DNA of 64,000 bases from Candidatus Micrarchaeia archaeon (GTDB taxonomy: Archaea; Micrarchaeota; Micrarchaeia; Burarchaeales; Fermentimicrarchaeaceae): contig JAVZHX010000001.1 in the NCBI GenBank assembly GCA_038871515.1, positions 397,638-461,637 of the forward strand, in the 5' to 3' direction. The first letter of the stretch is position 1, and the number at the start of each line of letters is the position of its first letter. The position numbers and the translations under genes were made by a program. This document shows positions 3,904 to 63,837 of the stretch, piece by piece. The notes beneath the pieces are model-generated. The model was not told where the DNA came from, made no database searches, and worked only from the letters and a program-made list of their open reading frames with translations.

Positions 3904-3950
3904 CTGATCGCCTCGGAGAATAAGTTTAAGTTGAGAAAAGAATAAAAAGG

Positions 3951-4679: not shown

Positions 4680-4761
4680 AGGTTTATTATTGAGCTCACT
4701 TCTTAAAAACGTAACCTTTTTAAATAGAAAAGTGAAAAAGTGAAACGTAAGTGGTGATTGG

Positions 4762-5052
4762 ATGACTATGAGGCTCTCTCGGTTATATGGGATGGATATA
4801 TACAGCGATACTGGAAAATACCTGGGAAGGGTTATTGATTTGATACTTGATTTGGAGAAGGGGGAAGTTGTGAGGATGACTATGCAGCCCCTTATGGCGG
4901 TTAGCAGGGAGGAAGCAAGAAGAATACTGAGAGAGGCGAGTGTGCTTTATAAGAATGTTAAATCTGTTGAGGATGTGGTTGTTGTAACGAAAGGAACTGC
5001 TGCTGAGAAGCTTGCTGAACTTCCGGAAGAGGAGATAAGGGGTTATAGGTAA
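4762..5052 (+). CDS. PRC-barrel domain protein
   Basis: LYGMDIYSDTGKYLGRVIDLILDLEKGEV matches the archaeal PRC-barrel pattern. Confidence 0.7.
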   Translation: MTMRLSRLYGMDIYSDTGKYLGRVIDLILDLEKGEVVRMTMQPLMAVSREEARRILREASVLYKNVKSVEDVVVVTKGTAAEKLAELPEEEIRGYR

Positions 5053-5646
5053 TCAACCCAAGTCAGCGTGCAGTTTCTTCAATTCCTCCTCACTTTTCTT
5101 ATATCTCAGCATGAGCTCGTCTATTATTGAGTCTAGGAAAATCATTGTGGAGAGCTCAAAAAGAGTTCCAAGGGGAGTGAGTGGTTCGTGTTCCCCGCTG
5201 AGCTGCCTTGCCTCATAATCCCTTTTTGCTTCCTCTGGGCGCCTTCCTTTTATCTGAACGACAACGTCTGAAAGTTTTCCAATTTCTGAGTTTGGGTCAG
5301 AGGTTATGCTGACAACCTTCACTCCTTTCTCCTTTGCAACTTTTGCTGCAACGACAACTGAAATTGTTCTGCCAGAGCCTGAAACGAGGATGAGTAAATC
5401 GTCTTTTGAGAGCGCAGGGGTGATAACCTCGCCGAGAACGTAAACTGTGAAGCCTAGGTGCATCAGCCGCATGCCGAATGCTTTTGCAACAAGCCCACTT
5501 CTTCCAGCCCCTCCAATAAATATTCTTTTTGCGTTTATTATTGAGTCAATGAACTGATCTATGCTTTTTCTGTCAATTTCCTTCAGCTGCTCTGCTATTT
5601 TTTGGGTGAGCTTTTCCATTCTTTTCTGTATCATTTTATCACTCAA
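5053..5646 (-). CDS. hxlB: 6-phospho-3-hexuloisomerase (SIS domain, RuMP pathway)
   Basis: RIFIGGAGRSGLVAKAFGMRLMHLGFTVYVLGEVITPALSKDDLLILVSGSGRT is the PHI/SIS signature. Confidence 0.85.
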   Translation of the reverse strand: MSDKMIQKRMEKLTQKIAEQLKEIDRKSIDQFIDSIINAKRIFIGGAGRSGLVAKAFGMRLMHLGFTVYVLGEVITPALSKDDLLILVSGSGRTISVVVAAKVAKEKGVKVVSITSDPNSEIGKLSDVVVQIKGRRPEEAKRDYEARQLSGEHEPLTPLGTLFELSTMIFLDSIIDELMLRYKKSEEELKKLHADLG

Positions 5647-5721
5647 TTAGTTTTTGTTGGATGTGTTTATTAACCCATGCGAAGCGCATTGGATATTTAT
5701 ATTTTCTGTCTAATTAATATT

Positions 5722-6579
5722 ATGGAAAAATATCTTCTCGTAAGCCCAAACTGCGCTGATTTATGTGCGCCGAATTTTGAAATAAAAAAGTTCCCTGATG
5801 GAGAGAATTATATTCGCATTCCAGAGGTTGAGAGGCTTGAGGGGAAGGATGTTGTGATTCTGCATAGGTGCTATCCTGAGCAGGATTCGCGTTTGTTTCA
5901 GCTCTTCCATATTTTGGAAGTAGTAACCCCTTTGGCTGCGCGCGTAACAGCAATAGTTCCATATCTTCCATATGCGAGGAAGGATGAGAAAGCTCAAAAA
6001 GGTGAGGTGAAGTCTGCAAGGTTGTTGTGCAAAATGCTTGCAGATGCAGGTGTTGATGAGCTGGTTACGTTTGACTGCCATTTCATACAGGAAGGGGAAG
6101 GGAGAATTAACTACGCTGGGTTGGATATAGATAACCGCTCGCTTGCTCCTGAGCTGCTTGAGTATCTGAAGCCAAAGGTGAGAAATCCTGTTTTCATATC
6201 TCCTGATGTGGGAACTGCGTATATGGTGAAAAAAGTGGGCGGGGTGAGTATGGAGAAGAAGCTAGGTGACTACGTGCAAGGGCCAGTTATATTCAGGCAG
6301 ATAATTGAGGAGAAGCTGGATTTTGATGTGAGCGGGAGGGATGTGGTATTGATAGATGATATGATAATTGCTGGGGAGACAATGATAAGGGCGGCACAGG
6401 TTTGTAAGAAAGGGGGTGCGAAGAGAATTGTGTGCGCTGCTGTTCATGGGTTGCTTGTGAGCTGCGCGTTTGACAAGATACGGGCTGCGGGAGCGAAGGA
6501 AGTTGTTGTCAGCGACAGCATACCTGGGCCTGCGGCAGTTGTGAGCGTTAAGAGAAAGCTGACTGATTATTTACCTTAA
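5722..6579 (+). CDS. prs: ribose-phosphate pyrophosphokinase (PRPP synthetase), paralog 1
   Basis: Contains FPDGENYIRIPE, YLPYARKDE, and the PRPP-binding loop VVLIDDMIIAGETM. Start taken at the internal ATG at 5722. Confidence 0.85.
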   Translation: MEKYLLVSPNCADLCAPNFEIKKFPDGENYIRIPEVERLEGKDVVILHRCYPEQDSRLFQLFHILEVVTPLAARVTAIVPYLPYARKDEKAQKGEVKSARLLCKMLADAGVDELVTFDCHFIQEGEGRINYAGLDIDNRSLAPELLEYLKPKVRNPVFISPDVGTAYMVKKVGGVSMEKKLGDYVQGPVIFRQIIEEKLDFDVSGRDVVLIDDMIIAGETMIRAAQVCKKGGAKRIVCAAVHGLLVSCAFDKIRAAGAKEVVVSDSIPGPAAVVSVKRKLTDYLP

Positions 6580-6619
6580 TATATTTTTTCATTCCAATTA
6601 GTTATGTTGAAGTGGGAGG

Positions 6620-7255
6620 ATGGCTGAGGTTATACCTGCAATATTAGTGAAAAGCAGAGAGGAGTTGCTGGAGCATATAGAGAGGGTTAGGGGAAGTGTT
6701 TCAAAGGTGCATATAGATATGATGGATAATGAGTTTGTCCCAAATAAAACGATTGGGTTGGAAAGCATTGAGGAGTTGCCAAATGGTTTGTCATATGAGT
6801 TTCACTGGATGGTGAAAAACCCTGAGAGGTGGGTTGAAAAAGTGAGAGGGAAACACCTTCATCTGATTCATGTGGAAACAATAAACAAAAGGAGTTGGGA
6901 GGAGTTGAAGGAAATATGCGAAAAGGAAGGTTGCGAACTTGGGCTGGTGCTGAATCCAGAAACAGGAGTGGAGAAGCTTGAGCAGTATGTAAAGGATGTT
7001 TCGCGCGTGCTTGTTATGGCAGTTCATCCTGGTTTTTATGGGCAGAAGTACATGCCAGAAGTTGAGGAGAAAATTCGTGCGCTCCGGGAGAGGTTTCCTG
7101 AGCTGGAAATAGAGGTGGATGGGGGAGTGAACCCAGAAACTGCAAGAAGGGCTTGCGGGGCTGGCGCAAACGTGCTTGCAGCTGCAAGCGCGGTGTATTC
7201 AGCGAAGAACCCAGGAGAAGCAATTGAAAAAATAAGGGCTGCGGGTGGTGAGTGA
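6620..7255 (+). CDS. rpe: ribulose-phosphate 3-epimerase
   Basis: Contains HIDMMDNEFVPN...MAVHPGFYGQKY...EVDGGVN. Confidence 0.9.
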   Translation: MAEVIPAILVKSREELLEHIERVRGSVSKVHIDMMDNEFVPNKTIGLESIEELPNGLSYEFHWMVKNPERWVEKVRGKHLHLIHVETINKRSWEELKEICEKEGCELGLVLNPETGVEKLEQYVKDVSRVLVMAVHPGFYGQKYMPEVEEKIRALRERFPELEIEVDGGVNPETARRACGAGANVLAAASAVYSAKNPGEAIEKIRAAGGE

Positions 7256-8163
7256 TGGTTGAGGATGCGGGAAAGCAGATGCTTCTTGAAGCTGCTCCGC
7301 CAGAGGTTGGGATGAAAAAGGTAACGGATTTGAGAAAGCTGTATTTGATTGCGAATAATATAAGAAAGGATGTTGTGAGAATGCTGCATGAAGCTAAATC
7401 TGGGCATCCTGCTGGTGCGATTGGGCTTGCGGACGTGTTCGCTGCGCTTTATTTCAACGTGCTAAACCATGATCCTAAAAATCCGGAGTGGCCAGGGAGG
7501 GATAGGCTTGTTCTCTCAAACGGGCATGTATGCCCTGTGATGTATGCAGCAATGGCAGAAGCTGGTTACTTTCCAAAGGAGGAGCTTATGACGCTGAGGA
7601 AGCTTGGCTCAAGGTTGCAGGGGCATCCACACAGAGGTTCGTTGCCTGGAGTTGAGAATAGTTCGGGTCCGCTTGGGCAGGGTTTGTCAATAGCTGTTGG
7701 GATGGCGATTGTTGCGAAGAGGGAGAGGAAGAGCTGGAGGGTTTACTGTGTTTGTTCTGATGGGGAGCAGGATGAGGGGCAGACGTGGGAGGCTGTTCTT
7801 CTTGCAGCAAAGTACAAGCTTGGGAATTTGACTGTGATAATGGATAGGAATAATATTCAGATTGATGGGTTCACTGAGGAGGTTCTTCCTCTTGAGCCGC
7901 TTGCTGAAAAATATAGGGCGTTCAACTGGCATGTGATAGAGGTTGATGGGCATAATATAAGGCAGATTATTGATGCGTGCAACGAGGCGAAGAGGGTGAT
8001 TGACAGACCAACGATGATAATTGCGCATACAATTCCTGGCAAGGATGTTTCGTTTATGGAGTTTGTTGCCGATTGGCATGGGAAGCCTCCTGGGGATAAG
8101 GAAGCTACAACTGCGCTTGGTGATTTGGAGGAGGAGGGGAGGTTCTACGGGGGAGAGGAATGA
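7252..8163 (+). CDS. tkt: transketolase, N-terminal subunit
   Basis: Contains SGHPAGAIGLADVFAALYF, LSNGHVCP and SDGEQDEGQTWEA (TPP-binding). The stop overlaps the next start. Confidence 0.9.
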   Translation: MMVEDAGKQMLLEAAPPEVGMKKVTDLRKLYLIANNIRKDVVRMLHEAKSGHPAGAIGLADVFAALYFNVLNHDPKNPEWPGRDRLVLSNGHVCPVMYAAMAEAGYFPKEELMTLRKLGSRLQGHPHRGSLPGVENSSGPLGQGLSIAVGMAIVAKRERKSWRVYCVCSDGEQDEGQTWEAVLLAAKYKLGNLTVIMDRNNIQIDGFTEEVLPLEPLAEKYRAFNWHVIEVDGHNIRQIIDACNEAKRVIDRPTMIIAHTIPGKDVSFMEFVADWHGKPPGDKEATTALGDLEEEGRFYGGEE

Positions 8164-12973: not shown

Positions 12974-13063
12974 GCTCCAGTCGTCTAGTCCGGTCAAGGA
13001 TCCCGGCCTTTCGTGCTTGCGCGAGGAAAGCCGGCGACCCGGGTTCAAATCCCGGCTGGAGCA
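12974..13063 (+). tRNA. tRNA-Glu(UUC) with a canonical 15-nt intron (13014-13028, position 37/38)
   Basis: Hand-folded cloverleaf: acceptor GCTCCAG/CTGGAGC, anticodon stem CCGGC/GCCGG, loop CTTTCG[intron]A, T arm CCGGG-TTCAAAT-CCCGG, discriminator A. Confidence 0.85.
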
Positions 13064-13086
13064 CTTCTGAAAGAACAATTGCTCCA

Positions 13087-18489: not shown

Positions 18490-18500
18490 TCTTTCACCAG

Positions 18501-18588
18501 CGGGCCCGGAGGGATTCGAACCCTCAAACCAACTGGTCCGAAGCCTTGCGAGTTGCCTAGTCGCGCTATCCAGTTGCGCCACGGGCCC
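18501..18588 (-). tRNA. probable tRNA-Arg(UCG) with a 13-nt non-canonical insertion (18546-18558, about position 29/30)
   Basis: Acceptor GGGCCCG/CGGGCCC, D arm GCGC-AACTGGATA-GCGC, T arm GAGGG-TTCGAAT-CCCTC. Removing AGGCAACTCGCAA yields anticodon arm ACTGG-CTTCGGA-CCAGT. The variable loop would be 6 nt, so the fold is not fully canonical. Confidence 0.6.
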
Positions 18589-38937: not shown

Positions 38938-39210
38938 ATGAACATAGAAATAGTAAAATTATCATCAAAAGGACAGCTGGTTTTACCACTTGCAATAAGA
39001 AAGCACTTCAGAGTTGGCAAGGGAGAAAGGCTGATGATAGTGGAGGAAGGAGGGACAATACTTCTCAAGCCCCTCAAGCAGATGAAACGCGATATTGAAG
39101 AAGAAATTTACCTGCTATCAAGAGCGGCTAAAGGGTGGGCGCAGGTTGAAAAAGGAAAAGCAAAAACAATGCTCAAAGATGAATTCCTGAGAGAGCTGTC
39201 AGCATGGTAA
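38938..39210 (+). CDS. AbrB/SpoVT-family antitoxin
   Basis: MNIEIVKLSSKGQLVLPLAIRKHFRV is the AbrB/MazE swapped-hairpin signature. Overlaps the toxin gene by 7 nt. Confidence 0.8.
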   Translation: MNIEIVKLSSKGQLVLPLAIRKHFRVGKGERLMIVEEGGTILLKPLKQMKRDIEEEIYLLSRAAKGWAQVEKGKAKTMLKDEFLRELSAW

Positions 39211-39455
39211 AGAATATTGTCTTTACAAATAATTTTGAACGCTCAATACGCAAGCTTAAGGATGCAGCACTGAGGGAGCGCATCAAAAAGAAGATTGCTG
39301 AGATTGTTGAGCGACCAGAAACTGGCAAACCACTTAGATTTCAGAGGAAAGGCGAAAGGTCCGTAAAGATTTCTCCATTCAGAATCATCTATGCTCTACA
39401 AGGTGATACGATATACTTCCTGGATTTTGATAAGAGAAACAAAGTCTATCGCTAA
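39204..39455 (+). CDS. RelE/ParE-family toxin
   Basis: 83 aa with F.RSIRKLKD...I..I.E.P..GKPL....G.RSVKISPFRIIY.....IYFLDF..R..VY. Confidence 0.75.
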   Translation: MVKNIVFTNNFERSIRKLKDAALRERIKKKIAEIVERPETGKPLRFQRKGERSVKISPFRIIYALQGDTIYFLDFDKRNKVYR

Positions 39456-39587
39456 TTCTGAATAAAAGAGAAGATATTTTTCTCAAAACTTTTCTAATAC
39501 CAATAGAAAACTTTATAGATAAACTACTAATACCGGGCTATGCTCTCCTCTCAGCTAAACACCGTTTTCTTTGATTATTAATTTTAA

Positions 39588-39636: not shown

Positions 39637-40947
39637 ATGAAGGAAGACGAGATAGCGGAAATTTTACTTGACTGGAATTTTTGGGAAAAGGAGCAACCAG
39701 CAGGAATACCCAGGCCCCTCTATCAAGATACGATAAAGAATTTCCTCAAAACAAACCAGATTATTGTAATCATAGGTGTAAGAAGAAGCGGCAAATCCAC
39801 AATAATGATGCAGACAGCAAAAACGTTAATTGACTCCGGTACTGACCCTCATGACATATTACTGGTCAACTTTGAAGATTACAGATTTTACGAGTTTTCA
39901 CTAAAACTTTTGCAACAAATTTATGATTTCTATCTTGAGAAGATAGCAAAAGGGAAGGATAGATACATTTTTCTCGATGAGGTTCACAACATCAAAGGGT
40001 GGGAGAGGTTTGTTAGGACTCTAGTAGACAAGAAGGAGGCAAAGATAATTGTTTCAGGCTCCAGCTCAAAATTAATGGGCAGGGAGCTCGCCACCCTACT
40101 CACCGGCAGACACATAAACTTGCTCGTCTTCCCACTAACCTTCAAAGAATTCCTGCTCTTTAAAAATCTAAAATTAGACAAAGAGACAGAACGTATAAGC
40201 AGAAGGAGAGAGATAAAAAAACTGCTTGCTGAATTCCTTGGATATGGTTCATTTCCAGAGGTTGTTTTGGCAGATAAGAAAGTAAGATATAAAATGCTCG
40301 TTGATTACATTGAAAGTATAATAAACAAAGACATTGTGACGAGATATAGAATAAAGGAAACGCAAAAGCTCAGAGCATTAGTCAAATTCTATATGACAAA
40401 TATAGCATCGCCAGTAAGCTTCAACAAAATAAAAAACTGGCTATCTCTTCCTTTGAGAACTGTGGAGAGGTTCTCCTACTATCTGGAAGAAGCCTATTTG
40501 GTATATTTCCTGAGAAGATTTTCCTTCAAGGTTAAGAAACAGGAAAAATCAGCGCGGAAGATATATGTTATAGACCAGGGTTTGTCAAACGCATACGGGC
40601 TCAAATTCAGTGCGAATGTTGGCAGAGTAATGGAAAATGTCGTTCTGCTGGAACTGCTTAAGAATGGCGCACAGGTTTATTACTGGAAAAGCCAAACAGG
40701 AAAAGAGGTGGACTTTGTCATTGAAGAAAACTTGAAAGCTAAACAACTCATTCAGATATGCTATGACGTGAGCGATTATAACGTAAAAATTAGAGAGGCG
40801 AGTGCTTTAATAAAAGCTTCTGAGGAGCTGAAATGCAGAAATCTTGTTGTGATCACTTGGGATTATGAATCCGAGGAAAAAATCCAAGGAGTTAAAATAA
40901 AATTTGTTCCTCTCTGGAAATGGCTTCTGGATGTCAAATCAGACTGA
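39637..40947 (+). CDS. COG1373-type ATPase (AAA domain plus DUF4143-like C-terminal domain), copy 1
   Basis: Walker A GVRRSGKST and Walker B IFLDEVHNI. The C-terminal EVDFVI...ITWDYE resembles the nuclease-like DUF4143 end. Confidence 0.75.
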   Translation: MKEDEIAEILLDWNFWEKEQPAGIPRPLYQDTIKNFLKTNQIIVIIGVRRSGKSTIMMQTAKTLIDSGTDPHDILLVNFEDYRFYEFSLKLLQQIYDFYLEKIAKGKDRYIFLDEVHNIKGWERFVRTLVDKKEAKIIVSGSSSKLMGRELATLLTGRHINLLVFPLTFKEFLLFKNLKLDKETERISRRREIKKLLAEFLGYGSFPEVVLADKKVRYKMLVDYIESIINKDIVTRYRIKETQKLRALVKFYMTNIASPVSFNKIKNWLSLPLRTVERFSYYLEEAYLVYFLRRFSFKVKKQEKSARKIYVIDQGLSNAYGLKFSANVGRVMENVVLLELLKNGAQVYYWKSQTGKEVDFVIEENLKAKQLIQICYDVSDYNVKIREASALIKASEELKCRNLVVITWDYESEEKIQGVKIKFVPLWKWLLDVKSD

Positions 40948-40974: not shown

Positions 40975-41791
40975 CTACTTTTTTGAAATCACCACATACG
41001 CATAATTCCCCTCAATCACCCTATAAACTCTAAGACCTGCTTTCTTAAAAATATCCTCAATTTCACTCTTTCTCCATCTATGAGAGCTGAAAACTTTCTT
41101 CTTATTGGCATACACCGCAATATCATGCGTTTTTTCATCATACGTTATTATCGGTGGGACTCCAAATATCTCAACAACAGGATTCCATATCCAACTTTGA
41201 AAACTATAATCTATAAGCTCAAGATACTTCGCAATATCACAGCCACGTGGCCTAAGATGAGGTGGTATCCTTTTGATAGCCGCACCATCTATTCTCATAT
41301 CCTCCGGTAACTTATAAAGCATCACAACAAACCTATCCTTCTTACTCATAACTTTTCTAACACTCCTTAAAACCCTAACCCTCTCTTTGATTGGAAAGTT
41401 ACCTAGGGTATTAACCAAACAAACAAAGATTTTTGGTATACCCCATCTCCTAACCAACATTTTAGTTTTACTCAAACTTCTAAAATCCTCTTGGATTAGT
41501 ATCACTCGTTTTGAGCATTTCTTTGCAATCCTTCCACAGAACTCCAACATTGGCTTTGAAAAATCTACCCCAACAATAAATGCGACATCCTTAATTCCCC
41601 CAAGCCATTCCAACGCCCTCCCAGGCCCAATTCCCAATTCAACAATAATTTTTTTTATTTTCAGGACGATATCCTTTGATAAATTTCACCAAATATTTCT
41701 CATCAACAATATCCAGTTTCTTCTGATATGCTTCATAAAATGCCTTCGGAGCTTTGCTGGACTTATATAAATCCACCCATTCGTACTCCAC
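40975..41791 (-). pseudogene. class I SAM-dependent methyltransferase, reading frame broken at an A8 run (about 41649-41656), paralog of 48047-48865
   Basis: The GTG at 41791 gives VEYEWVDLYKSSKAPKAFYEAYQKKLDIVDEKYLVKFIKGYRPENKKNYC*. Frame +1 continues IIVELGIGPGRALEW..., collinear with the intact paralog. Confidence 0.7.
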
Positions 41792-41806
41792 AAAACCACT
41801 TCCAAC

Positions 41807-42364
41807 TTACTTCTCAGAAGGTATGCTAACTGGGTCGAATATCCACTTACCCTTCAGCTCAAACGGCCTCATACTCCAAACTTTCTCCACCCACCCCTGC
41901 TTAATCAACTCCTCCCCAAACCGTTGGTATTCATCCAAATCCTGTGTGGTGACAACCAGAAGCAAATCCCATTCAGTTCCCTGGAGGGAGTAGGCCTGTC
42001 TCACTATGTTCACACCAAGTTTCTTCTGGGTTTCTATTATTCTCTCAATTATTTCAGTCCACCCACGTGGATACTCTATCTCAACCCCGACAACAGGAGG
42101 TGATAAATTAGCTTTTATGAAAACAATGAGATACTCATCCCACAGCCTGACTGGGTCGATAATTGCAGAATTTGTTTTTATTATAATCCTACGCCTTTTA
42201 AGAGAAACAATTCTCCTCCGTAATTCATTCAAGCTAATGCCAACTTTTTTACTCAGTTCCATCAACTCAGTCTTGCTAACTTCCCTCTCTTTCACAAGAA
42301 GATTCATTATCCTAAGATCTATTGCATCAATTTTCTCTTTGCTAATCTTTTTATATAACTTCAT
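41807..42364 (-). CDS. Lrp/AsnC-like regulator (HTH plus RAM-like domain with C-terminal extension), cassette copy A
   Basis: IDAIDLRIMNLLVKEREVSKTELMELSKKVGISLNELRRRIVSLKRRRII is an HTH_AsnC pattern. About two-thirds identical by eye to 48870-49469. Confidence 0.7.
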   Translation of the reverse strand: MKLYKKISKEKIDAIDLRIMNLLVKEREVSKTELMELSKKVGISLNELRRRIVSLKRRRIIIKTNSAIIDPVRLWDEYLIVFIKANLSPPVVGVEIEYPRGWTEIIERIIETQKKLGVNIVRQAYSLQGTEWDLLLVVTTQDLDEYQRFGEELIKQGWVEKVWSMRPFELKGKWIFDPVSIPSEK

Positions 42365-42461
42365 AATTCCACAATATTATACTGGGTATTATAAATAAAC
42401 TTTACTTAACATTCGCTACGGGAAACGGAAGAATCCACACCGCATATGTAATGTCAGAACT

Positions 42462-42513
42462 GAGGATTTCTGCTACCTAATCTCATATGGTCTTACTTCC
42501 TCAAAGCTCACAA
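42462..42513. repeat. about 50-nt remnant of the 3' end and flank of the nuclease-like gene
   Basis: 42483-42513 is identical to 47024-47054. The preceding 20 nt match with a few mismatches. Confidence 0.75.
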
Positions 42514-42550
42514 TAATATAATAAAATTCCCCTACTCACAGAAATTTATT

Positions 42551-42985
42551 CTACAGTGGCCTCACCACAACTTTCCGATTATCCAAATTTTTTAACTCTC
42601 CTTCCAACCATTGCTTACCCACTTCTGTCTCTAAGACTTTCTTCACTTCTGACTCAATTTTCTTTCCGTCATAATTCGCATATTCCTTAACCCCCTGAAA
42701 TTTACCTATCTTTATTAGCTCGCCCGTTTTATCAAACTCTGCGCTTAACTTCATCAATACATCTTCTCTTAACCCCCACAATTTACCCTCTCTTCCAACT
42801 ACCTTCATATCAAGTTTCACTCTTTCGTTTAATTTTACCGATACTTGCACTTCCTTCTGGTTGCCATGCTCGTCAATCTCTCTTCCCACAAGAATGCGCT
42901 CTCCTTCAACTAGCCAATGAGGCTGTATGCTGAGACGTACCCCATCTATCACCATCTCTTCACGAATTTTAACCCCACTACCCAA
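42551..42985 (-). CDS. hypothetical protein, cassette copy A (distant paralog of 49630-50085)
   Basis: 144 aa. Shares the C-terminal GKQWL.(G/E)EL.NL..R..V..PL with the 151-aa paralog. Confidence 0.55.
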   Translation of the reverse strand: MGSGVKIREEMVIDGVRLSIQPHWLVEGERILVGREIDEHGNQKEVQVSVKLNERVKLDMKVVGREGKLWGLREDVLMKLSAEFDKTGELIKIGKFQGVKEYANYDGKKIESEVKKVLETEVGKQWLEGELKNLDNRKVVVRPL

Positions 42986-43017
42986 ATCATCACCTTTGGT
43001 TATCTATTGAATTGAAA

Positions 43018-43557
43018 TTAAAGCTGGTAAGGTCTTACTTCCTCAAAGCTCACAACAAAGCTCTTAGGATACCTCTGCACTGACTGCTTCACCTCTTCCC
43101 TCAACTTCCTTAAGGATGCAACAAACAGAACCAGCTCCCTTCCCCTTTTCCTCTTCTCAGCTTCCCTTGCCCTCTCCATCAGTGATTCAATTTCCTTCTC
43201 TGTAACCTCCTCCCCCCACTTCACCTCCCCAACAACAAGGTACTTTGAATTCACTCCCACCGCATCAAAGCAGGCATTTCCCCAAATATTTTTAGCCTCT
43301 CCAAGGGGAGGGACTGCAAACCCTGCATGCACCAGCGCATCCCTCACCCTGTCCTTTGCAAACTTCTGCATTTTCTCCACTTCAATAATCTTTCCACTTT
43401 CCATCAGAACTTCCTGGTAGTTGCCTGTGTACTCCAATGCGCACAGAACCTTTCTTCTGAGGAGAGAAACAGGATCCTCCACCTCCTCGACTACCGCTTG
43501 CCTAACCGGCTCCTCCCTTTTAATCACCTTGCCCAGCATGGCAAGGAGACCCACCAT
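43018..43557 (-). CDS. putative PD-(D/E)xK nuclease-fold protein, copy 1
   Basis: 179 aa. CFDAVGV-x8-LVVGEVKW gives a D...ExK arrangement. Nucleotide-identical to copy 2 over 525 bp. Confidence 0.5.
   Translation of the reverse strand: MVGLLAMLGKVIKREEPVRQAVVEEVEDPVSLLRRKVLCALEYTGNYQEVLMESGKIIEVEKMQKFAKDRVRDALVHAGFAVPPLGEAKNIWGNACFDAVGVNSKYLVVGEVKWGEEVTEKEIESLMERAREAEKRKRGRELVLFVASLRKLREEVKQSVQRYPKSFVVSFEEVRPYQL
43031..43555. repeat. 525-bp perfect direct repeat, copy 1
   Basis: Line-by-line comparison with 47030-47554 (offset 3999) shows no mismatch. Confidence 0.9.
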
Positions 43558-43974
43558 ACCACCTCCGAGAGTTAGTACACTACCCCTTTAAGTTTAGATG
43601 ATCCTCCTTTAAACCACTTCCTTTTTCTATAATTTTTTAAAAAATGTAGACTAATTAACTAATTTTAATCAATCCTAATACATTTTTCTAAATAAAAATT
43701 GCATATTATATGAACAAAATAACTTTAAGGAAGATAGAAACGCTTCTCGCAATTCATATGTTGTAGTCATATTTTCTATAATCTCTCTAAATTAATGATA
43801 TTAAACATTATTTTTAAACAAAATTTAGATATAACTTATACTTATTGCACAACTAGACGAATCTTTCCACCCAACTGCTCAAATTCCATTTTTTACAAAA
43901 CATAAATAAAACATCAACAAAAATACAATGTACTAAAAGAAAAATATTTATATTTTAAGCGCTATATCAAATTT

Positions 43975-45663
43975 ATGGTCGAATTTGATGTGCTTTCTAA
44001 TCTTGTTTTTAGGGAATTATGTATGAACAGCAGAGTGACAATAACCGACATAGCACACAAACTTAACTGCTCCAGAAACGCAGTAAAACGAAGAATAGAC
44101 TTCCTTGGTAATGAGCTGAAGATCAAATATGTAACTGAGTTGGACGAGAGAGAACTTGGGTTTGCATATAACTATATAATCCGGGCTAAACTCAAAAAAC
44201 CCATCGACAAAAACACTCTGCTAAACTATCTCAAACACGATCCAGTTCCACAATTTGCTGCTTTTACAAAAGGGGATTTTGACCTTATAATATACGCAAC
44301 TGCAAAAACACATAACGAGTATTGCGAATGGGAGTATTGGATGCGTTACCTACTGAGAGACCACCTTGAAAATTGGAACAACGCTCACTTCTTAGCTTCC
44401 AGATACGGTTTCTTTCCTCTTCATGAAAATGCTCTAGAAACAATATCCCTACCAACTCCGAGAAAAGAGATATTGCTGTTGTTAAACCGTAACTCACGCA
44501 TTTCGCTAAAAGATTTGGCGAAAAGCACTAAACTAAGTCACCCAACAGCAAGATATCATGTCACCAAGCTAGAGGAGTCAAGAGTTGTAAGGAGATTCAC
44601 CGCAATTGCGAAGAAACCTCCCAAATCTGTCCATTTTTTCGTATTTTGGACATATCGTTTTAATGAGGGGTTTGAAGAGAGGGCGATAAAAGTCAGAAAA
44701 ATCATAAGAGACGAACCAGAGCAGATCACAATGAATAAATGCTCCTTCATAGCGAGCCTAAGTGGCACGGCTGACGAAGTTGCACTTCTCTCCTACGATG
44801 ATATTGAAAGAGGTTATGAAGAGATAAAACTCATCGACAAGATATTCGCACCGGATGAAGTAAAAACAGAGAGCGGAATAATAACACAGGTAATCTATGG
44901 CGAGCTTCCATTCAGAAACACAGATATAAGCAAGCTGTATGATGTTTCATGGCCGATATATAAGCGGGTGGGAAGCACTAAAAAAGAGACTGCAAAAGAA
45001 AAACTCAATGCGCTTGATTATTTAAACGAATTCAATGAGAGATGGGGCAACATAGTCCTACCACAAATTGACTCTTTTCTAAAAAGCAGAAAACCTTACC
45101 TTGATGTTACTCAGTATTTCAAAAACACAAAATCCCGAATTTTTGAGACAAATATAAAGAATGGCAAACACGTATATGCGCTATGTTTCGACGGTGCGAA
45201 AGGAATGGTTGATAAATTTGAGATAACTGAGAAAGGTGGGATACAGAGAGATTCAAATAACAAGTTAATTGTGAAGGTTAATGCCTCTATGGTAGTTATG
45301 GGGTTGCTTGACTTGTTCGTCCCATTCCTCACAACTGATGAAATCCTACCCTTTAACAGAACTCTTGAAAGACCGTATGGGTTGGACCCGAAGAGAGTTA
45401 GAAAAACTGTAACGAAACTTGGCAAAGACCCACGGAAAGATTTGATTTGCTTCTTCATCCAAGACCCCCAAGAAATAGACGAGAAAATCAAACTGTTCCT
45501 GGTGGAGTTCAGGAGGTTGGTTAGTGGCGAGTATTTCAAAAGAGAAAAGGTATCAACCTTCACAAAACCGCCCCACTACAACATAGGTAATGAGGAACTA
45601 TCAAAACTTGTCAAAGAGCTCGTTGAGCAGTACTGCGAACCCACAGCTGGTGTGAAGAGGTGA
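43975..45663 (+). CDS. large protein with two tandem Lrp/AsnC-like units and an unknown C-terminal region of about 230 aa
   Basis: HTH 1 is RELCMNSRVTITDIAHKLNCSRNAVKRRIDFL. HTH 2 is LLLLNRNSRISLKDLAKSTKLSHPTARYHVTKLEESRVV. Each is followed by a RAM-like segment. Confidence 0.6.
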   Translation: MVEFDVLSNLVFRELCMNSRVTITDIAHKLNCSRNAVKRRIDFLGNELKIKYVTELDERELGFAYNYIIRAKLKKPIDKNTLLNYLKHDPVPQFAAFTKGDFDLIIYATAKTHNEYCEWEYWMRYLLRDHLENWNNAHFLASRYGFFPLHENALETISLPTPRKEILLLLNRNSRISLKDLAKSTKLSHPTARYHVTKLEESRVVRRFTAIAKKPPKSVHFFVFWTYRFNEGFEERAIKVRKIIRDEPEQITMNKCSFIASLSGTADEVALLSYDDIERGYEEIKLIDKIFAPDEVKTESGIITQVIYGELPFRNTDISKLYDVSWPIYKRVGSTKKETAKEKLNALDYLNEFNERWGNIVLPQIDSFLKSRKPYLDVTQYFKNTKSRIFETNIKNGKHVYALCFDGAKGMVDKFEITEKGGIQRDSNNKLIVKVNASMVVMGLLDLFVPFLTTDEILPFNRTLERPYGLDPKRVRKTVTKLGKDPRKDLICFFIQDPQEIDEKIKLFLVEFRRLVSGEYFKREKVSTFTKPPHYNIGNEELSKLVKELVEQYCEPTAGVKR

Positions 45664-45722
45664 ACTAAAACTATCTAATGTTAATAGAAAAGTTTATAAA
45701 TAAACTATTCTAATACTAAACT

Positions 45723-46991
45723 ATGTTATTCCACCCGATACTAAAGGAACAGAGGGAGGAGCTTGAGCAAATAGAAAGGGAAGAGAACATCATTGAACGG
45801 GATAAGCATAACGAGGCAAAAAACCTTTTGGAACACCCAAACATTCTTGCAGTTCTTGGAATTCGAAGGTGTGGCAAATCGGTTTTTTCGTATCTGCTTG
45901 CCAAAGACAGCATGGGTTATGTAAACTTTGATGATGAGAGGCTTGCCGGCTTGAAAGGACAGGAGCTTAACAACATCCTCCAATCAATCTACGAGCTTTA
46001 TGGCGATGTGAAATACCTAGTCCTTGACGAGGTTCAGAATGTTGATAACTGGGAGCTCTTTGCTAACCGACTGAGGAGAACCAAGAGGGTTATTCTCACC
46101 GGAAGCAACTCCAAACTACTTTCAGGTGAACTTGCAACACACCTCACTGGAAGATATGTGAGCATCAACCTATTCCCCTTCTCCTTCCAAGAATTTTTAA
46201 GATTTAAACGACACAAGTTGGAGGGGTTTCATACCACAAAGGAAAAAGCAATGCTCCTCACTCTTTTAAGGGAGTATTTGGAAACAGGAGGTCTCCCGGA
46301 AGCATACAAATTTGGCAAATCCATAATCGCGCGCATATATGACGACATAATCACAAAAGATCTTCTCCTGAGGTACAAAATAAAGAGAACCGCTGACCTC
46401 AGGCAGCTTGCAAGATATCTGGTAACAAACTCCGCGGAGGAGTTCACATACGGCAAACTCGCAAAAATTTTTGGGATAAAGCACATTTCAACGGTTTCCA
46501 ATTGGGTTTCATACCTTGAGAATTCCTTCCTTTTATTCAAAATTGACAGGTTTGACTTCAAGCTCAAAAAACAATTCCTCGCCCCCAAGAAAATTTACTG
46601 CGTTGATACTGGAATTATTAATACAGTTGGCTTCAAGTTTTCAGAGGATACGGGAAGGATAATTGAGAATGCAGTTGCTGTGGAACTACAGAGGAGAATA
46701 ACCTCTGCTGAGAGGAAGGAAATTTACTACTGGAAGGATCACCTGCAAAACGAAGTTGATTTTGTGGTGAAGGAGGGAAAAAGGATTACCCAGCTGATTC
46801 AGGTTGCATACGCAACTAAGAGAAATGAAATTAGGAGGAAGGAGCTCACAGCATTGGTGAAGGCAGGCAGAGAGTTAAGGTGCAGAAACCTCCTCGTGAT
46901 TACATGGGACTGCGAGCTTGAGGAGAGAGTTGGCGGATTCAGAGTAAGATTTGTTCCTCTCTGGAAATGGCTTCTTGGAGAGCCCAGATAA
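45723..46991 (+). CDS. COG1373-type ATPase (AAA plus DUF4143-like), copy 2
   Basis: Walker A GIRRCGKS, Walker B LVLDEVQNV, C-terminal EVDFVV...ITWDCE...FVPLWKWLL as in copy 1. Confidence 0.75.
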   Translation: MLFHPILKEQREELEQIEREENIIERDKHNEAKNLLEHPNILAVLGIRRCGKSVFSYLLAKDSMGYVNFDDERLAGLKGQELNNILQSIYELYGDVKYLVLDEVQNVDNWELFANRLRRTKRVILTGSNSKLLSGELATHLTGRYVSINLFPFSFQEFLRFKRHKLEGFHTTKEKAMLLTLLREYLETGGLPEAYKFGKSIIARIYDDIITKDLLLRYKIKRTADLRQLARYLVTNSAEEFTYGKLAKIFGIKHISTVSNWVSYLENSFLLFKIDRFDFKLKKQFLAPKKIYCVDTGIINTVGFKFSEDTGRIIENAVAVELQRRITSAERKEIYYWKDHLQNEVDFVVKEGKRITQLIQVAYATKRNEIRRKELTALVKAGRELRCRNLLVITWDCELEERVGGFRVRFVPLWKWLLGEPR

Positions 46992-47003
46992 TGGTTACCC
47001 CTG

Positions 47004-47594
47004 CTACTGAATTTCATATGGTCTTACTTCCTCAAAGCTCACAACAAAGCTCTTAGGATACCTCTGCACTGACTGCTTCACCTCTTCCCTCAACTTCCTT
47101 AAGGATGCAACAAACAGAACCAGCTCCCTTCCCCTTTTCCTCTTCTCAGCTTCCCTTGCCCTCTCCATCAGTGATTCAATTTCCTTCTCTGTAACCTCCT
47201 CCCCCCACTTCACCTCCCCAACAACAAGGTACTTTGAATTCACTCCCACCGCATCAAAGCAGGCATTTCCCCAAATATTTTTAGCCTCTCCAAGGGGAGG
47301 GACTGCAAACCCTGCATGCACCAGCGCATCCCTCACCCTGTCCTTTGCAAACTTCTGCATTTTCTCCACTTCAATAATCTTTCCACTTTCCATCAGAACT
47401 TCCTGGTAGTTGCCTGTGTACTCCAATGCGCACAGAACCTTTCTTCTGAGGAGAGAAACAGGATCCTCCACCTCCTCGACTACCGCTTGCCTAACCGGCT
47501 CCTCCCTTTTAATCACCTTGCCCAGCATGGCAAGGAGACCCACCGCACCACCTCCAAGCGACCTTTTATTGGCTGACAGATAGAATTTTAGCAA
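47004..47594 (-). CDS. putative PD-(D/E)xK nuclease-fold protein, copy 2 (start uncertain; TTG 47594, GTG 47553 or ATG 47538)
   Basis: Protein is identical to copy 1 apart from the extreme termini. Confidence 0.5.
   Translation of the reverse strand: MLKFYLSANKRSLGGGAVGLLAMLGKVIKREEPVRQAVVEEVEDPVSLLRRKVLCALEYTGNYQEVLMESGKIIEVEKMQKFAKDRVRDALVHAGFAVPPLGEAKNIWGNACFDAVGVNSKYLVVGEVKWGEEVTEKEIESLMERAREAEKRKRGRELVLFVASLRKLREEVKQSVQRYPKSFVVSFEEVRPYEIQ
47030..47554. repeat. 525-bp perfect direct repeat, copy 2
   Basis: Identical to 43031-43555. Confidence 0.9.
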
Positions 47595-47698
47595 AAGGTA
47601 TATATATAACTTTTGTTTTTTTATACACAGTAAAAAATAATTTACAAACCTCTAAAAAACAGCATACAATTTTAAACTTTTAACTATAATTTTTTCTT

Positions 47699-48046
47699 AT
47701 GGGTCGAGCTATTCGTAATAACAAAAATAATAAGTGGTCCCTTATTCACATTATAACAAAACCCCAGAATAAAGCCATAATCCAGCTACTCTCAGATAAA
47801 AAACCAAGAATGCCAGTACAAATTTGTAAAGAATTAAGCAAAAGTTTTCCCAAAGCCACGTTATATCTCGCAATGAAAGAACTAGCTAAGAGAAAGTTTC
47901 TAGTCCCAATGATAATTGAGAACAAAACTAAACCTTGGAGAAGCTTAACAGAAATTTTGGGTTATACTCTGGATGAGGATCTCTACGCAATAATAAAAAC
48001 TTTAGATGAAGTCGATGAAAAAGCTGGGCGCATATCAAATAAATAA
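47699..48046 (+). CDS. winged-helix DNA-binding protein (ArsR-like)
   Basis: 115 aa with NKAIIQLLSDKKPRMPVQICKELSKSFPKATLYLAMKELAKRKFLV. Confidence 0.55.
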   Translation: MGRAIRNNKNNKWSLIHIITKPQNKAIIQLLSDKKPRMPVQICKELSKSFPKATLYLAMKELAKRKFLVPMIIENKTKPWRSLTEILGYTLDEDLYAIIKTLDEVDEKAGRISNK

Positions 48047-48865
48047 CTATTTTTTCGAAACCACAACGTACGCGTAGTCGCCCTCTATTATTCTATCTAT
48101 CTTTAATCCCGCTAGCTTATGCAAATCCTTTATCTCTTTCTTACTCCATCTATGAGAAGCGAAGACCTTTTTATCTCCCACATAGGCAGCTATATCCTGA
48201 CTTACTTCATCATATGTTATTATCGGTGGGCTACCAAATATCTCAACAACTGGATCCCATATCCAATTCTGAAAACTGTAGTCTATAAGCTCAAGATACT
48301 TCATAATATCATAACCACGTGGTCTAAGATGGATGGGTATCCTTTTAATGGCCGTGCTATCTATTTTCATGTCCTGTGGTAACTTATAAAGCATCAAAAC
48401 TATTCTATCTTCATCATTCATCAACATCCTCACTTTTCTTAAGACCCTTAGTCTATCTCTTGGTGGGAAATTACCCAACGTATTCACCAAACAGATAAAA
48501 ATTATTGGATGAACCCTATTTTTAATGAACCTTTTTGTTCTACTCAGATCTCTAAAATCTTCATGAATAAGCACTACCCGTTTAAGATATCTTTTAGCAA
48601 CATTCTTACAGAAATCTAACATATACTTCGAGAAATCTACTCCAATAATTGTGTGGATGTTTTTTATTTTATCTAGCCACTCCAACTCCCTACCTGGCCC
48701 TATTCCAAGATCTACTACAATTTTTTCACTATTTGGATGATAGCTATTTATAAAATCAACCAAATGCCTTTCATCAATAATATCTAATTTCTTCTGGTAA
48801 GCTTTATAAAAAGCTTCGGGAGCTTTAACAGATCTGTACAAGTCTACCCATTCATATTTTTTCAC
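48047..48865 (-). CDS. class I SAM-dependent methyltransferase, cassette copy B (intact)
   Basis: Motif I is VVDLGIGPGRELEW, followed by IGVDFSKYML and LVNTLGNF. No DNA-methyltransferase DPPY/NPPY or PC motif seen. Confidence 0.75.
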   Translation of the reverse strand: MKKYEWVDLYRSVKAPEAFYKAYQKKLDIIDERHLVDFINSYHPNSEKIVVDLGIGPGRELEWLDKIKNIHTIIGVDFSKYMLDFCKNVAKRYLKRVVLIHEDFRDLSRTKRFIKNRVHPIIFICLVNTLGNFPPRDRLRVLRKVRMLMNDEDRIVLMLYKLPQDMKIDSTAIKRIPIHLRPRGYDIMKYLELIDYSFQNWIWDPVVEIFGSPPIITYDEVSQDIAAYVGDKKVFASHRWSKKEIKDLHKLAGLKIDRIIEGDYAYVVVSKK

Positions 48866-48869
48866 AAAA

Positions 48870-49469
48870 TCACTTCAAATGTTTAAGAGGTAACTTAACA
48901 TTTTTAACATACTCCATCGGTGATGGTACTTCAACAGGATCAAAGAACCATTTTCCTTTCAGCTCAAAAGGTCGTATACTCCATATTTTTTCTATCCACC
49001 CCTGTTTAATCAATGTTTCTCCAAATTCCTGGTACTCATTCAAATCCTGCGTAGTAATTATCAAAAGCAGATCCCATTCAGTGCCTTGGAGAGCGTAAGC
49101 CTGTCGTATTATATTTATCCCCAATTCCCGTTCAGTTTCCTTTAGTTTTTCTATAATTTCTGTCCATCCTCTCGGATAGTTTATTTCAACTCCAATAACC
49201 GGTGGAGAAAGATTAGCCTTAACCATTACGATTAAGTATTCATCCCATAATTTGATTGGATCAATAAGTGCAGAATTTGTTTTTAAAATTACACCTTTTT
49301 TACTTAAGATTGAAATCCTATCTTTAACCTCATCCTTATTTATTCTCAATTTTTTTGCTATATCGCTCACTTCTCGATCTGTCAGATCTCTACCTGCTAG
49401 AAGTAATTTAAGTATCCGCAAATCTACTTCATCTAATTTTTCCCGGATTACTTTTTTCCATATACCCAT
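48870..49469 (-). CDS. Lrp/AsnC-like regulator, cassette copy B
   Basis: Contains LDEVDLRILKLLLAGRDLTDREVSDIAKKLRINKDEVKDRISILSKKGVI. The C-terminal domain is nearly identical in pattern to copy A. Start taken at ATG 49469. Confidence 0.7.
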   Translation of the reverse strand: MGIWKKVIREKLDEVDLRILKLLLAGRDLTDREVSDIAKKLRINKDEVKDRISILSKKGVILKTNSALIDPIKLWDEYLIVMVKANLSPPVIGVEINYPRGWTEIIEKLKETERELGINIIRQAYALQGTEWDLLLIITTQDLNEYQEFGETLIKQGWIEKIWSIRPFELKGKWFFDPVEVPSPMEYVKNVKLPLKHLK

Positions 49470-49629
49470 ATTCTCCCATATTTTCTCTCCTTCCAAGTTA
49501 AAAATCTTTTGTTTGTTAACCACACGACTAGCTCCCGAATTCCCGCAAATCACTTAGAGATACCCAACAAACAGATGCATAATTTATAAAGCAAATACAG
49601 TAATCTACCAATAATCATCAACCAACAAC

Positions 49630-50085
49630 TCAACCAAGTGGTTTCGCCACAAACCTTCTTTTTCCTAAATTTTCTAACTCTTCTACTAACCATTGTTTAC
49701 CGATACGACTTTGAATAACTCTCCTCAACTCATCTTCAAGATTTTCCTTATTTGTATATGCTGCGTATTCTCCGATACATTCTGAGCGAATTTTTACCAA
49801 TTTAGCATCTAAATTAAAATCTGCATTAAATTTTACTAATATATCCTCTTTGAATCCACCCCATTTCCTTTCCTTCCCGCTCATCTTCAATTGCCAGTTT
49901 ATCATTTTATCATGCTTCAAAGAAATTTTAGTTTCTTTCACCCCTTCTTCATCCTCTTTCCTACCCACCAACAGAGTCCTGTTCTCCTCTAAACTATGTG
50001 GCTCTTTCTTGAGACTTATTCCAAAAACCATTGCTTCATCTTTTGCCGAAGATTTTCTTAAACCCTGCATACTATTAAATCTCAT
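49630..50085 (-). CDS. hypothetical protein, cassette copy B
   Basis: 151 aa, distant paralog of 42551-42985. Confidence 0.55.
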   Translation of the reverse strand: MRFNSMQGLRKSSAKDEAMVFGISLKKEPHSLEENRTLLVGRKEDEEGVKETKISLKHDKMINWQLKMSGKERKWGGFKEDILVKFNADFNLDAKLVKIRSECIGEYAAYTNKENLEDELRRVIQSRIGKQWLVEELENLGKRRFVAKPLG

Positions 50086-63736: not shown

Positions 63737-63837
63737 GGGCCCGTAGCTCAGCGTGGCAGAGCGGCTGAAAGTTTGCCGAAGCTCTTAACTTCGCTGGCGA
63801 AACCAGTAGGTCGCGCGTTCAAATCGCGCCGGGCCCG
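63737..63837 (+). tRNA. probable tRNA-Lys(CUU) requiring removal of two insertions (63768-63780 and 63790-63803) flanking the anticodon loop
   Basis: Acceptor GGGCCCG/CGGGCCC, D arm GCTC-AGCGTGGCA-GAGC, T arm GCGCG-TTCAAAT-CGCGC. Excising 13 nt and 14 nt gives GCTGG-CTCTTAA-CCAGT plus variable AGGTC, a 74-nt canonical tRNA. Confidence 0.65.

Follow-up and report, generated by a model that had tools for sequence, protein, structure and literature searches.

A two-gene operon of an Lrp-type regulator and an EgtD-like methyltransferase, found twice at a cassette hotspot in a Micrarchaeia genome

Which genes belong together in a gene cassette that occurs twice in a variable island of an archaeal genome, and do they make up a defence system? 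The question is raised by a 64,000-nt stretch of a Candidatus Micrarchaeia archaeon (the window; all coordinates without a locus label are positions in it). Here, genes for a small protein, an Lrp/AsnC-like protein and a class I S-adenosylmethionine (SAM) methyltransferase lie close together in copy A (smallA, lrpA and mtA) and again in copy B (smallB, lrpB and mtB), with a nuclease-like gene, nuc, near each copy (nucA and nucB). The copy number in the window is exactly two for each of these four genes. A preliminary description, drawn from the sequence itself, read the first three genes as a core linked to the nuclease and to two COG1373-type ATPases, and proposed an undescribed defence or conflict module. 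We find that the repeated unit is a two-gene operon, in which an Lrp-type regulator gene is followed by a gene for an EgtD-like methyltransferase. Three components, namely the small protein, the nuclease and the ATPases, are struck from the proposed defence cassette.

Gene neighbourhoods were compared across related metagenome contigs or genomes (numbered here with the prefix L). In every locus examined, except for one nuclease-fused variant, the methyltransferase gene comes directly after the Lrp-like gene or overlaps it. In the window the gap is 4-15 nt (mtB starts 4 nt past the lrpB stop codon), and in other lineages the genes overlap. The pairing is kept throughout the near clade of the pair (L002-L006, L027-L030 and L038-L041) and throughout a clade at 36-45% identity (L007/L031, L032-L037 and L011), in which L007/L031 carries two tandem pairs. 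It persists in more distant lineages. In L025, a Nitrosopumilaceae metagenome-assembled genome (MAG) with ~25% identity, the two genes overlap by 4 nt and the methyltransferase bears an N-terminal zinc ribbon. In L050, the Lrp-like gene is followed by a methyltransferase of the family (hidden Markov model E = 3e-14). In L051, the partner that overlaps the Lrp-like gene is a bona fide Methyltransf_33 gene (53 bits; cut-off 23). A gene for a KAP-family P-loop NTPase begins 3 nt past this partner, and the three (L051 1125-3535) may form a single operon. The three-gene core of the preliminary description was not borne out: the Lrp-like/methyltransferase pair is constant, whereas the small-protein gene is missing from L005/L006 and all distant-clade loci, and is displaced in L038-L041, where a winged helix-turn-helix (wHTH) gene and nuc separate it from the pair.

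The family is sparsely represented. A word-based search of 5.8 billion proteins returned eight matches to the methyltransferase and seven to the Lrp-like protein, and a HMMER search with the Lrp-like profile gave 36 clusters (at 50% identity) with E<=1e-10 among 1.84 billion representatives. When GTDB representative genomes were scanned with a methyltransferase pattern, the matches listed comprised only remote methyltransferases together with L011 and L025. A brief literature search found no paper on an Lrp-methyltransferase pair in archaea or on Methyltransf_33 in archaea. A pairing that is stable from DPANN archaea to a Nitrosopumilaceae MAG makes the operon a target in the search for a new N-methylated metabolite or for a regulator-enzyme complex.

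What kind of regulator is the first gene product? The Lrp-like proteins consist of a predicted wHTH, a RAM domain and a conserved F-D-P-x-x-x-P tail. A profile of the family aligns with 3i4p, an AsnC-family regulator solved at full length (E = 8.6e-6, query positions 13-163), and the HTH part of the profile aligns to more than 15 solved Lrp/AsnC proteins (E 1e-5 to 1e-3). A RAM domain adjoining the HTH is supported by the full-length alignment to 3i4p and by residues K84 and G129-x-x-x-D133, which are kept in 97-100% of the 32 aligned family members on which all conservation figures for this protein are based. Residues W102, P178 and P182 are specific to the subfamily and 94-97% conserved. P178 and P182, each present in 97% of the members, bear out the conserved C-terminal extension that had been described from the two window copies. 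Conservation is about equal in the wHTH (0.42) and the RAM domain (0.45), and the AsnC-type HTH pattern is retained family-wide. Homologues of lrpB in related loci encode 199 amino acids (aa). A TATA-like box is conserved upstream of the Lrp-like gene, and lrpA has a box of its own. Neither Pfam nor NCBIfam yielded a family for these proteins which, judged from their sequences, form a distinct subfamily of Lrp/AsnC.

The second gene product is a methyltransferase whose closest structural relatives act on amino acids and peptides. mtB scores 28.0 bits against Methyltransf_33 (PF10017) and the C-terminal part of mtA 25.8 (cut-off 23), in matches restricted to profile positions 57-175 of 304; the mtB score against Methyltransf_25 is higher (34.6 bits; cut-off 27). 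An AlphaFold2 (AF2) model of mtB (predicted local distance difference test [pLDDT] 84.4, predicted template modelling score [pTM] 0.85) was compared with solved structures using Foldseek. Chains of EgtD occupied ranks 1-10 (E 5e-13 to 1.5e-11, TM score 0.58-0.65 over ~275-315 columns), followed by CypM and CcbJ (E ~2e-11, TM score 0.55-0.65) and AzeJ. This ranking of the predicted model supports an EgtD-like overall fold that includes the substrate domain. EgtD is the histidine N-alpha-methyltransferase of ergothioneine synthesis, CypM a peptide N-terminal methyltransferase and CcbJ an amino-acid N-methyltransferase, the last two from natural-product pathways. All three methylate amino-acid or peptide nitrogens, and AzeJ cyclises SAM to azetidine-2-carboxylate. 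Since the model is closest to EgtD, CypM and CcbJ, the enzyme is more like the N-methyltransferases of amino acids or peptides than like DNA methylases. It has generic class I motifs (DLGIGPG, and N-T-L-G-N-F after strand 4), and the alignment contains no DNA-methylase (D/N/S)PP(Y/F/W) or PC motif, in line with the earlier view that the enzyme is of small-molecule or protein type and outside restriction-modification. A restriction-modification system built from the methyltransferase, a C-protein-like wHTH and the nuclease was considered separately and rejected, as the methyltransferase lacks DNA-methylase motifs and wHTH-nuc occurs without a methyltransferase.

An N-T-(L/I)-G-N motif after strand 4 is common to the methyltransferases of the pair and their bona fide Methyltransf_33 neighbours. 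In EgtD, Asn166 binds the alpha-amine of the substrate (PMC8593015). A phmmer search of the PDB with the Methyltransf_33 protein of L051 gave no match, and the equation of N-T-L-G-N with Asn166 remains a lead only.

We propose that the operon encodes an Lrp-type regulator that senses a ligand and has a promoter of its own, with translational coupling to an N-methyltransferase of EgtD fold for an amino-acid-like or peptide substrate, and place the probability of this reading at roughly 0.45. The Lrp-like protein would bind near its own promoter and sense an amino-acid-like ligand through its RAM domain. It would thereby govern co-expression of the methyltransferase, which in turn would N-methylate a small amino-acid-type or peptide substrate. 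Lrp/AsnC regulators are often encoded beside an enzyme gene under their control.

A number of observations weigh against this proposal. On the regulator side, matches to HTH_AsnC-type (PF13404; 23.2 bits for lrpA and 16.9 bits for lrpB) fall short of the gathering cut-off of 27, scores for AsnC_trans_reg (PF01037) and in NCBIfam are likewise under their cut-offs, and an alignment of the regions upstream of the Lrp-like genes displays the TATA-like box only, with no conserved palindrome. On the enzyme side, likeness to EgtD is confined to the fold (10-14% identity). The NCBIfam egtD equivalog TIGR03438 gives 27.2 bits against a cut-off of 290.9, far below the level of EgtD orthology, and no EgtB-type gene (FGE-sulfatase or DinB) is found among the genes called in the loci. 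As to the genomic setting, the pair recurs in variable regions rich in toxin-antitoxin (TA) genes, the L051 pair lies beside the KAP NTPase gene, and one member of the Lrp-like family is fused to an Mrr domain on a contig with a phage tail-tube gene. Finally, the tight coupling of the genes and the conserved non-canonical tail of the Lrp-like protein, both maintained across deep divergence, would be compatible with a physical Lrp-methyltransferase complex as well.

In such a complex the Lrp-like protein would be an obligate partner of the methyltransferase, as a substrate-presenting or allosteric subunit or as a methylation target in a stoichiometric assembly, and not mainly a transcription factor. 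Start and stop codons of the two genes overlap or nearly touch in most lineages, and W102, P178 and P182, kept in 94-97% of members, lie beyond the canonical Lrp motifs. The Lrp-like protein also appears in unusual forms. P0046 and P0050 are tandem doubles in a single polypeptide and P0085 carries a C-terminal FHA fusion. P0076 (L048 2778-3770) has an N-terminal Mrr_cat fusion and no methyltransferase neighbour, on a contig with a phage tail-tube gene. Moreover, the weak profile matches 4ch7 and 4czd include known Lrp-fold enzyme subunits (siroheme decarboxylase AhbA/B and NirD). However, the wHTH retains its AsnC-type pattern and is about as well conserved as the RAM domain, and none of the best 150 matches to the Lrp-like family is an Lrp-methyltransferase fusion. 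We consider an obligate complex rather unlikely.

Does the pair instead belong to a larger system with the nuclease and the ATPases? The coordinates of these and the other features of the region are collected below.

Features of the cassette region (window positions), listed from copy B towards pyrD
Feature	Position	Strand	Basis
smallB, 151 aa, no family match	49630..50085	-	open reading frame (ORF)
lrpB, 199-aa divergent Lrp/AsnC-type protein	48870..49469	-	ORF, family profile
mtB, 272-aa class I SAM methyltransferase, EgtD-like fold	48047..48865	-	Pfam, AF2/Foldseek
Putative wHTH gene, 115 aa, divergent partner of nucB	47699..48046	+	ORF
nucB, predicted PD-(D/E)xK fold	47004..47594	-	repeat shared with nucA, same fold evidence
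COG1373-type ATPase B, PDC-S01 candidate, converges on nucB	45723..46991	+	PADLOC
562-aa protein, two Lrp/AsnC-type HTH modules, divergent partner of nucA	43975..45663	+	Pfam
nucA, 179 aa, predicted PD-(D/E)xK nuclease fold	43018..43557	-	AF2 model, Foldseek
smallA, 144 aa, paralogue of smallB	42551..42985	-	ORF
Orphan remnant of nuc 3' end, 47 nt	42470..42516	-	91% identity to nucB 3' end 47001-47047
lrpA, 185-aa Lrp-like protein	41807..42364	-	ORF
mtA, frameshifted methyltransferase	40975..41791	-	sequence; +1 in A8 run 41649-41656
COG1373-type ATPase A, PDC-S01 candidate, converges on mtA	39637..40947	+	Pfam, PADLOC
MazE/ParE-type toxin-antitoxin pair, last cassette ahead of pyrD	38938..39455	+	ORFs

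All of the ORFs named in the preliminary description are present at or near the positions given there, and mtA alone lacks an open frame. The nuclease-like gene had been called 100 percent identical between its copies. The repeat comprises 542 bp (43028-43569 matching 47017-47558) with four mismatches, an identity of 99.3%. Through two of the four, nucB has GCG where nucA has its ATG, and the start codon of nucB is probably GTG at 47543, or else TTG at 47594. The suggestion that the protein has a PD-(D/E)xK fold fared well. An AF2 model from an alignment of 30 sequences (pLDDT 74.8, pTM 0.71) has an alpha-beta-beta-beta-alpha-beta core, and its top Foldseek matches in the PDB are Cdn1, MspJI, Hjc, NucS/EndoMS and Nt.BspD6I (probability 0.9-1.0, with modest E values of 4e-3 to 0.05). 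Viral PD-(D/E)xK and Mrr proteins match it in BFVD, and all top matches in both databases are PD-(D/E)xK proteins. Residues D73, D98, E111 and K113 (nucA numbering) are invariant in an alignment of five sequences; in the alignment of 30, D and K are invariant and E nearly so, consistent with a D...E-x-K triad. No match was obtained in Pfam (E<=10), NCBIfam, PADLOC, PHROGs or PDB sequences, which leaves nuc outside the named nuclease families (Hjc, NucS, Mrr_cat). The nuc family comprises more than 30 clusters at 54-72% identity, and the gene also occurs without the Lrp-methyltransferase pair. Being lineage-wide and found without the pair, nuc is therefore a conserved gene of the lineage and not a member of the cassette to which it had been linked. 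The wHTH gene beside nuc is similarly conserved in L002-L005 and L038-L043, including loci without the pair. Its 115-aa product has a single weak NCBIfam match.

The two ATPases do approach the copies convergently, as first described. Both contain AAA_14 and DUF4143 (E = 2e-36 and 1.5e-27 in ATPase A), are 38% identical to each other and match PADLOC PDC-S01 over the full length (E = 2.3e-122 for ATPase A and 8.8e-107 for ATPase B). PDC-S01 is abundant in Archaea and is a candidate single-gene defence whose antiviral role has not been validated (PMC12988326). The ATPases are missing from syntenic relatives and are self-contained PDC-S01 candidates, and their link to the cassette is thereby lost. 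ATPase A, ATPase B and the ATPase cassette of L044 have their promoter-proximal end in common. Upstream of these three genes (39485-39533, 45667-45716 and L044 2299-2345), ~45 nt are conserved in the form CATAGTTTAGTATTAGATAGTTT-TATA-box-AAGTTTTCTAT, although the proteins have only 38% identity. This stretch may be the end of a cassette or else a regulatory site that the genes share.

We consider it unlikely that the cassette is a module for defence or conflict. In such a system, infection would be sensed by the Lrp-like protein, a nucleic acid or metabolite would be the target of the methyltransferase, and the effector role would fall to the nuclease, the ATPases or both. The appeal of this reading comes from the surroundings. 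The island is variable, has a GC content of 0.34-0.42, below that of its flanks, and holds TA and abortive-infection (Abi) genes, as had been noted. AbiE, MNT/HEPN and ParE/MazE lie in it, besides the two PDC-S01 ATPases. The pair is patchily distributed and present in two copies, of which copy A lies within an array of horizontally inserted cassettes, and the KAP P-loop NTPase gene of L051 and the fusion of P0076 to Mrr_cat point in the same direction. The proposal of an undescribed defence module drew on this neighbourhood alone. PADLOC-DB 2.0 has no model for the small protein, nuc or lrpA. The PADLOC matches of lrpB are weak (E ~1e-3) and involve HTH parts of CRISPR-associated Csa3/CasR/CARF models, and that of the methyltransferase is a partial mad2 match (E = 2.6e-11) over residues 34-168, the SAM-binding half. 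The fold and motifs of the methyltransferase are of small-molecule or peptide type, and nuc, unlike restriction nucleases, is conserved across its clusters and found apart from the pair. The ATPases are absent from syntenic relatives, and the same hotspot receives metabolic-looking cargo (V4R paralogues with a PALP enzyme). In the IMG/VR viral contigs, neither the Lrp-like protein nor nuc had a relative.

How, then, did two copies of the pair come to lie in such company? In relatives, the syntenic order is FIST, AF0774-like, (small), lrp, methyltransferase, wHTH on the opposite strand, nuc, (a 65-aa gene or a TA pair) and pyrD-pyrK-pyrE. Copy B sits exactly at this syntenic position. The ~8 kb between nucB and the TA/pyrD end of the window are filled by ATPase B, the 562-aa gene, nucA, smallA, the remnant, lrpA, mtA and ATPase A. 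Other genomes have other cargo. In L042/L043, ten V4R paralogues and a PALP enzyme precede wHTH-nuc; in L042 the ten tandem V4R-domain genes, with the PALP (pyridoxal-phosphate) gene among them, extend from 1572 to 7487 between FIST and wHTH-nuc. L045/L046 have only a gene for a 563-aa protein, divergent from nuc. The 562-aa protein of the window is 85% identical to this protein (L045 5477-7168), a value above the conservation of nuc, and the 562/563-aa gene is always divergent from a nuc gene. HTH_24 and HTH_AsnC-type each match two stretches of the 562-aa protein, leaving a C-terminal region of ~350 aa without a family match, and it shows no similarity to the wHTH protein. The MazE/ParE pair precedes pyrD in L005 and L043 also; for the pair of the window, Pfam ParE_toxin and a weak MazE_antitoxin match are recorded on an identical Logan contig.

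Short copies of the end of nuc mark the boundaries of these cassettes. The orphan remnant between smallA and lrpA reads ...SFEEVRPYEIR* and marks an att-like junction of cassette insertion. The window contains a 25-nt core of the nuc 3' end three times (expected number zero), and copies of the end lie at 42470-42516, 43028-43058 and 47001-47047, as well as at ~6747 in L038, ~4503 in L043, and ~301, 976, 2349 and 5608 in L044. Remnants consisting of the last 25-47 nt of nuc follow smallA, the small gene in L038-L041 and the ParE/MazE pair in L043. In L044, they follow a ParE/MazE pair and then a COG1373 ATPase, and a second full copy of nuc stands at the end. The arrangement of nuc, small gene and remnant is also present in L038-L041. 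The two or three variable residues past RPY differ with the neighbouring cassette, which places the crossover near ...AGACC. We read the array between nuc and pyrD as built by repeated site-specific insertion at the nuc 3' end, a process that, if general, would give DPANN genomes a new mechanism of gene capture.

This history invites a further speculation, namely that nuc anchors and possibly catalyses an integron-like capture of cassettes in Micrarchaeota, with the Lrp-methyltransferase pair as mobile, conflict-related cargo that might, for example, sense a metabolite and methylate either it or a peptide during infection, in place of a housekeeping role as regulator and enzyme. Cassettes equipped with promoters would enter by recombination at the final ~25-45 nt of nuc and accumulate in the space from there to pyrD. 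The cargo seen consists of the small gene, PDC-S01 ATPases and ParE/MazE pairs, to which the copy A pair probably also belongs. Integrons have been reported in Archaea (PMC9668308). No integrase domain is found among the genes called in the loci, and we regard this combined scenario as decidedly unlikely.

The comparison of the two copies supports the earlier view of an old conserved unit and not a recent duplication. By BLASTP, copies A and B are 66% identical in the methyltransferase (after correction of the mtA frame) and 63% in the Lrp-like protein, close to the two-thirds estimated by eye, and their shared Lrp-methyltransferase DNA is 70% identical over 1,260 nt. lrpA is 64-68% identical to the B-type orthologues. 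Overall, copy A stands at 63-69% identity to copy B and to the orthologues of B in other populations alike, and these orthologues are 75-86% identical among themselves. Since copy A is about equally far from B and from the orthologues of B, it is a paralogue or xenologue of long standing. The pair has been duplicated recurrently, and beyond this window too, as seen in L007 (166-3114), where two tandem Lrp-methyltransferase pairs enclose a UbiE-type methyltransferase gene and are followed by a LAGLIDADG-like gene and RtcB. For the most part, then, the comparisons establish copy B as the resident copy, at the syntenic position of related populations, and copy A as an older divergent copy within a stack of cassettes inserted at the nuc 3' end. 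In mtA, which spans 817 nt, one extra A in the A8 run breaks the frame after 48 codons, directly ahead of the SAM-binding motif, and the intact part is the ORF 40975-41637. The matching site of mtB is an A6 run, the remainder of mtA has no stop codons, and the A8 run is equally present in the short-read assembly of the same sequencing run. The frameshift may be an inactivation of very recent date, a site that switches the gene on and off by slippage, or an error in the reads.

Could the tandem arrangement itself be an artefact of assembly, with the copies of two strains, or a 3,989-bp episome of nuc, ATPase and 562-aa gene, joined through the 542-bp repeat? Short-read contigs of the same run (Logan L047 and L001) stop inside repeats, at 42512 in a 31-nt repeat and at 47515 in the 542-bp repeat, and the linkage of copy A to copy B is therefore carried by the 541-kb assembly alone. 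In addition, the segment from one nuc copy to the other comes out of assembly as a contig of its own (3,518 nt), and wHTH/nuc (as in L002) and 562aa/nuc (as in L045) are alternatives elsewhere. The 3,989-bp unit of nuc, ATPase B and the 562-aa gene may be a circular or strain-variable form. Yet the two nuc copies are told apart by four mismatches and by the unique sequence on either side of each, a single FIST flank and a single pyrD flank are present, and independent parallels exist in L044, with two nuc copies around an ATPase cassette, and in the tandem pairs of L007. We judge an artefact very doubtful, and it would put only the tandem arrangement at stake, leaving the identity of the gene pair unaffected.

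The small protein remains to be placed. smallA and smallB had been thought to share only a C-terminal motif, whereas their alignment covers the full length (38% identity, E = 3e-31), and smallB is 63% identical to its homologues in L002-L004. Searches of Pfam (E<=10), NCBIfam, PADLOC and PDB sequences returned no match to the protein; when three versions were scanned against PHROGs, smallA alone had a marginal match (E = 0.008). In copy B and L002-L004 the gene precedes the Lrp-like gene, and it comes after nuc in L038-L041 and in copy A, where it is upstream of lrpA yet downstream of nucA. Between the small gene and the Lrp-like gene is a gap of 160-186 nt (160 nt for smallB-lrpB) with a conserved TATA-like box. 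The small protein is thus an optional neighbour with its own transcription unit, outside the conserved core. That it serves this clade as substrate or accessory of the methyltransferase, for example through CypM-like N-terminal methylation, is hardly credible despite its place immediately before the Lrp-like gene in both window copies and in L002-L004 and the rank of CypM among the best structural matches, given its absences and displacement elsewhere, the promoter-bearing gap and its behaviour as a cassette in its own right, with the nuc 3' end repeated on either side.

Apart from the cassette region, ARAGORN called three tRNAs of 87-91 nt in the window (12974-13064, 18500-18588 and 63750-63836), including a tRNA-Ser with the unusual anticodon ACT. 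Their length suggests introns or miscalls.

Each element of the locus can be compared with a known system. With Lrp/AsnC regulators (3i4p, Pyrococcus FL11/PH1519, LrpA and LysM), the Lrp-like proteins have in common the RAM fold (beta-alpha-beta-beta-alpha-beta), the canonical K and G/D motifs and, judged from the profile alignment, probably the N-terminal AsnC-type winged HTH. They differ in ~20 extra residues within the RAM domain, in a conserved tail of 20-35 residues and in the strict coupling of the subfamily to one type of enzyme gene across phyla. EgtD/Methyltransf_33 provides the best structural match to the methyltransferase of the pair, with Pfam scores over the cut-off, and bona fide Methyltransf_33 genes occupy the partner position in L051 and lie next door in L005. 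In contrast to EgtD, the enzyme is ~50 residues shorter, and EgtB, EgtC and EgtE genes are not nearby. CypM and CcbJ are high-ranking structural neighbours of similar size but, unlike theirs, the surroundings of the pair include no biosynthetic cluster, precursor peptide or tailoring enzymes.

The neighbouring genes have counterparts of their own. nuc shares its predicted core fold and D...E-x-K triad with Hjc, Hje and NucS/EndoMS, and is 24-28% identical to Archaeoglobus fulgidus Hjc over ~90 aligned residues. Compared to Hjc and NucS, it has an added long N-terminal helix, and insertions recur at its 3' end. Both ATPases of the window match PDC-S01, in which an ATPase is joined to a PD-(D/E)xK domain, and they stand alone, outside the Lrp-methyltransferase unit. 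Like integron arrays, and like integrative elements whose insertion regenerates the 3' end of the target gene, the array has short promoter-bearing cassettes gathered at one anchor gene and bounded by repeats of ~25-45 nt. It differs from integrons in that no IntI or other integrase is seen in the loci and in that the repeat, in place of an attC hairpin, is coding sequence from the 3' end of a PD-(D/E)xK gene. The general kind of the unit, a regulator-enzyme operon, is thus already known. What is new here is a distinct Lrp subfamily that is tied to an EgtD-like methyltransferase across archaeal phyla and located in a cassette hotspot anchored by a PD-(D/E)xK gene.

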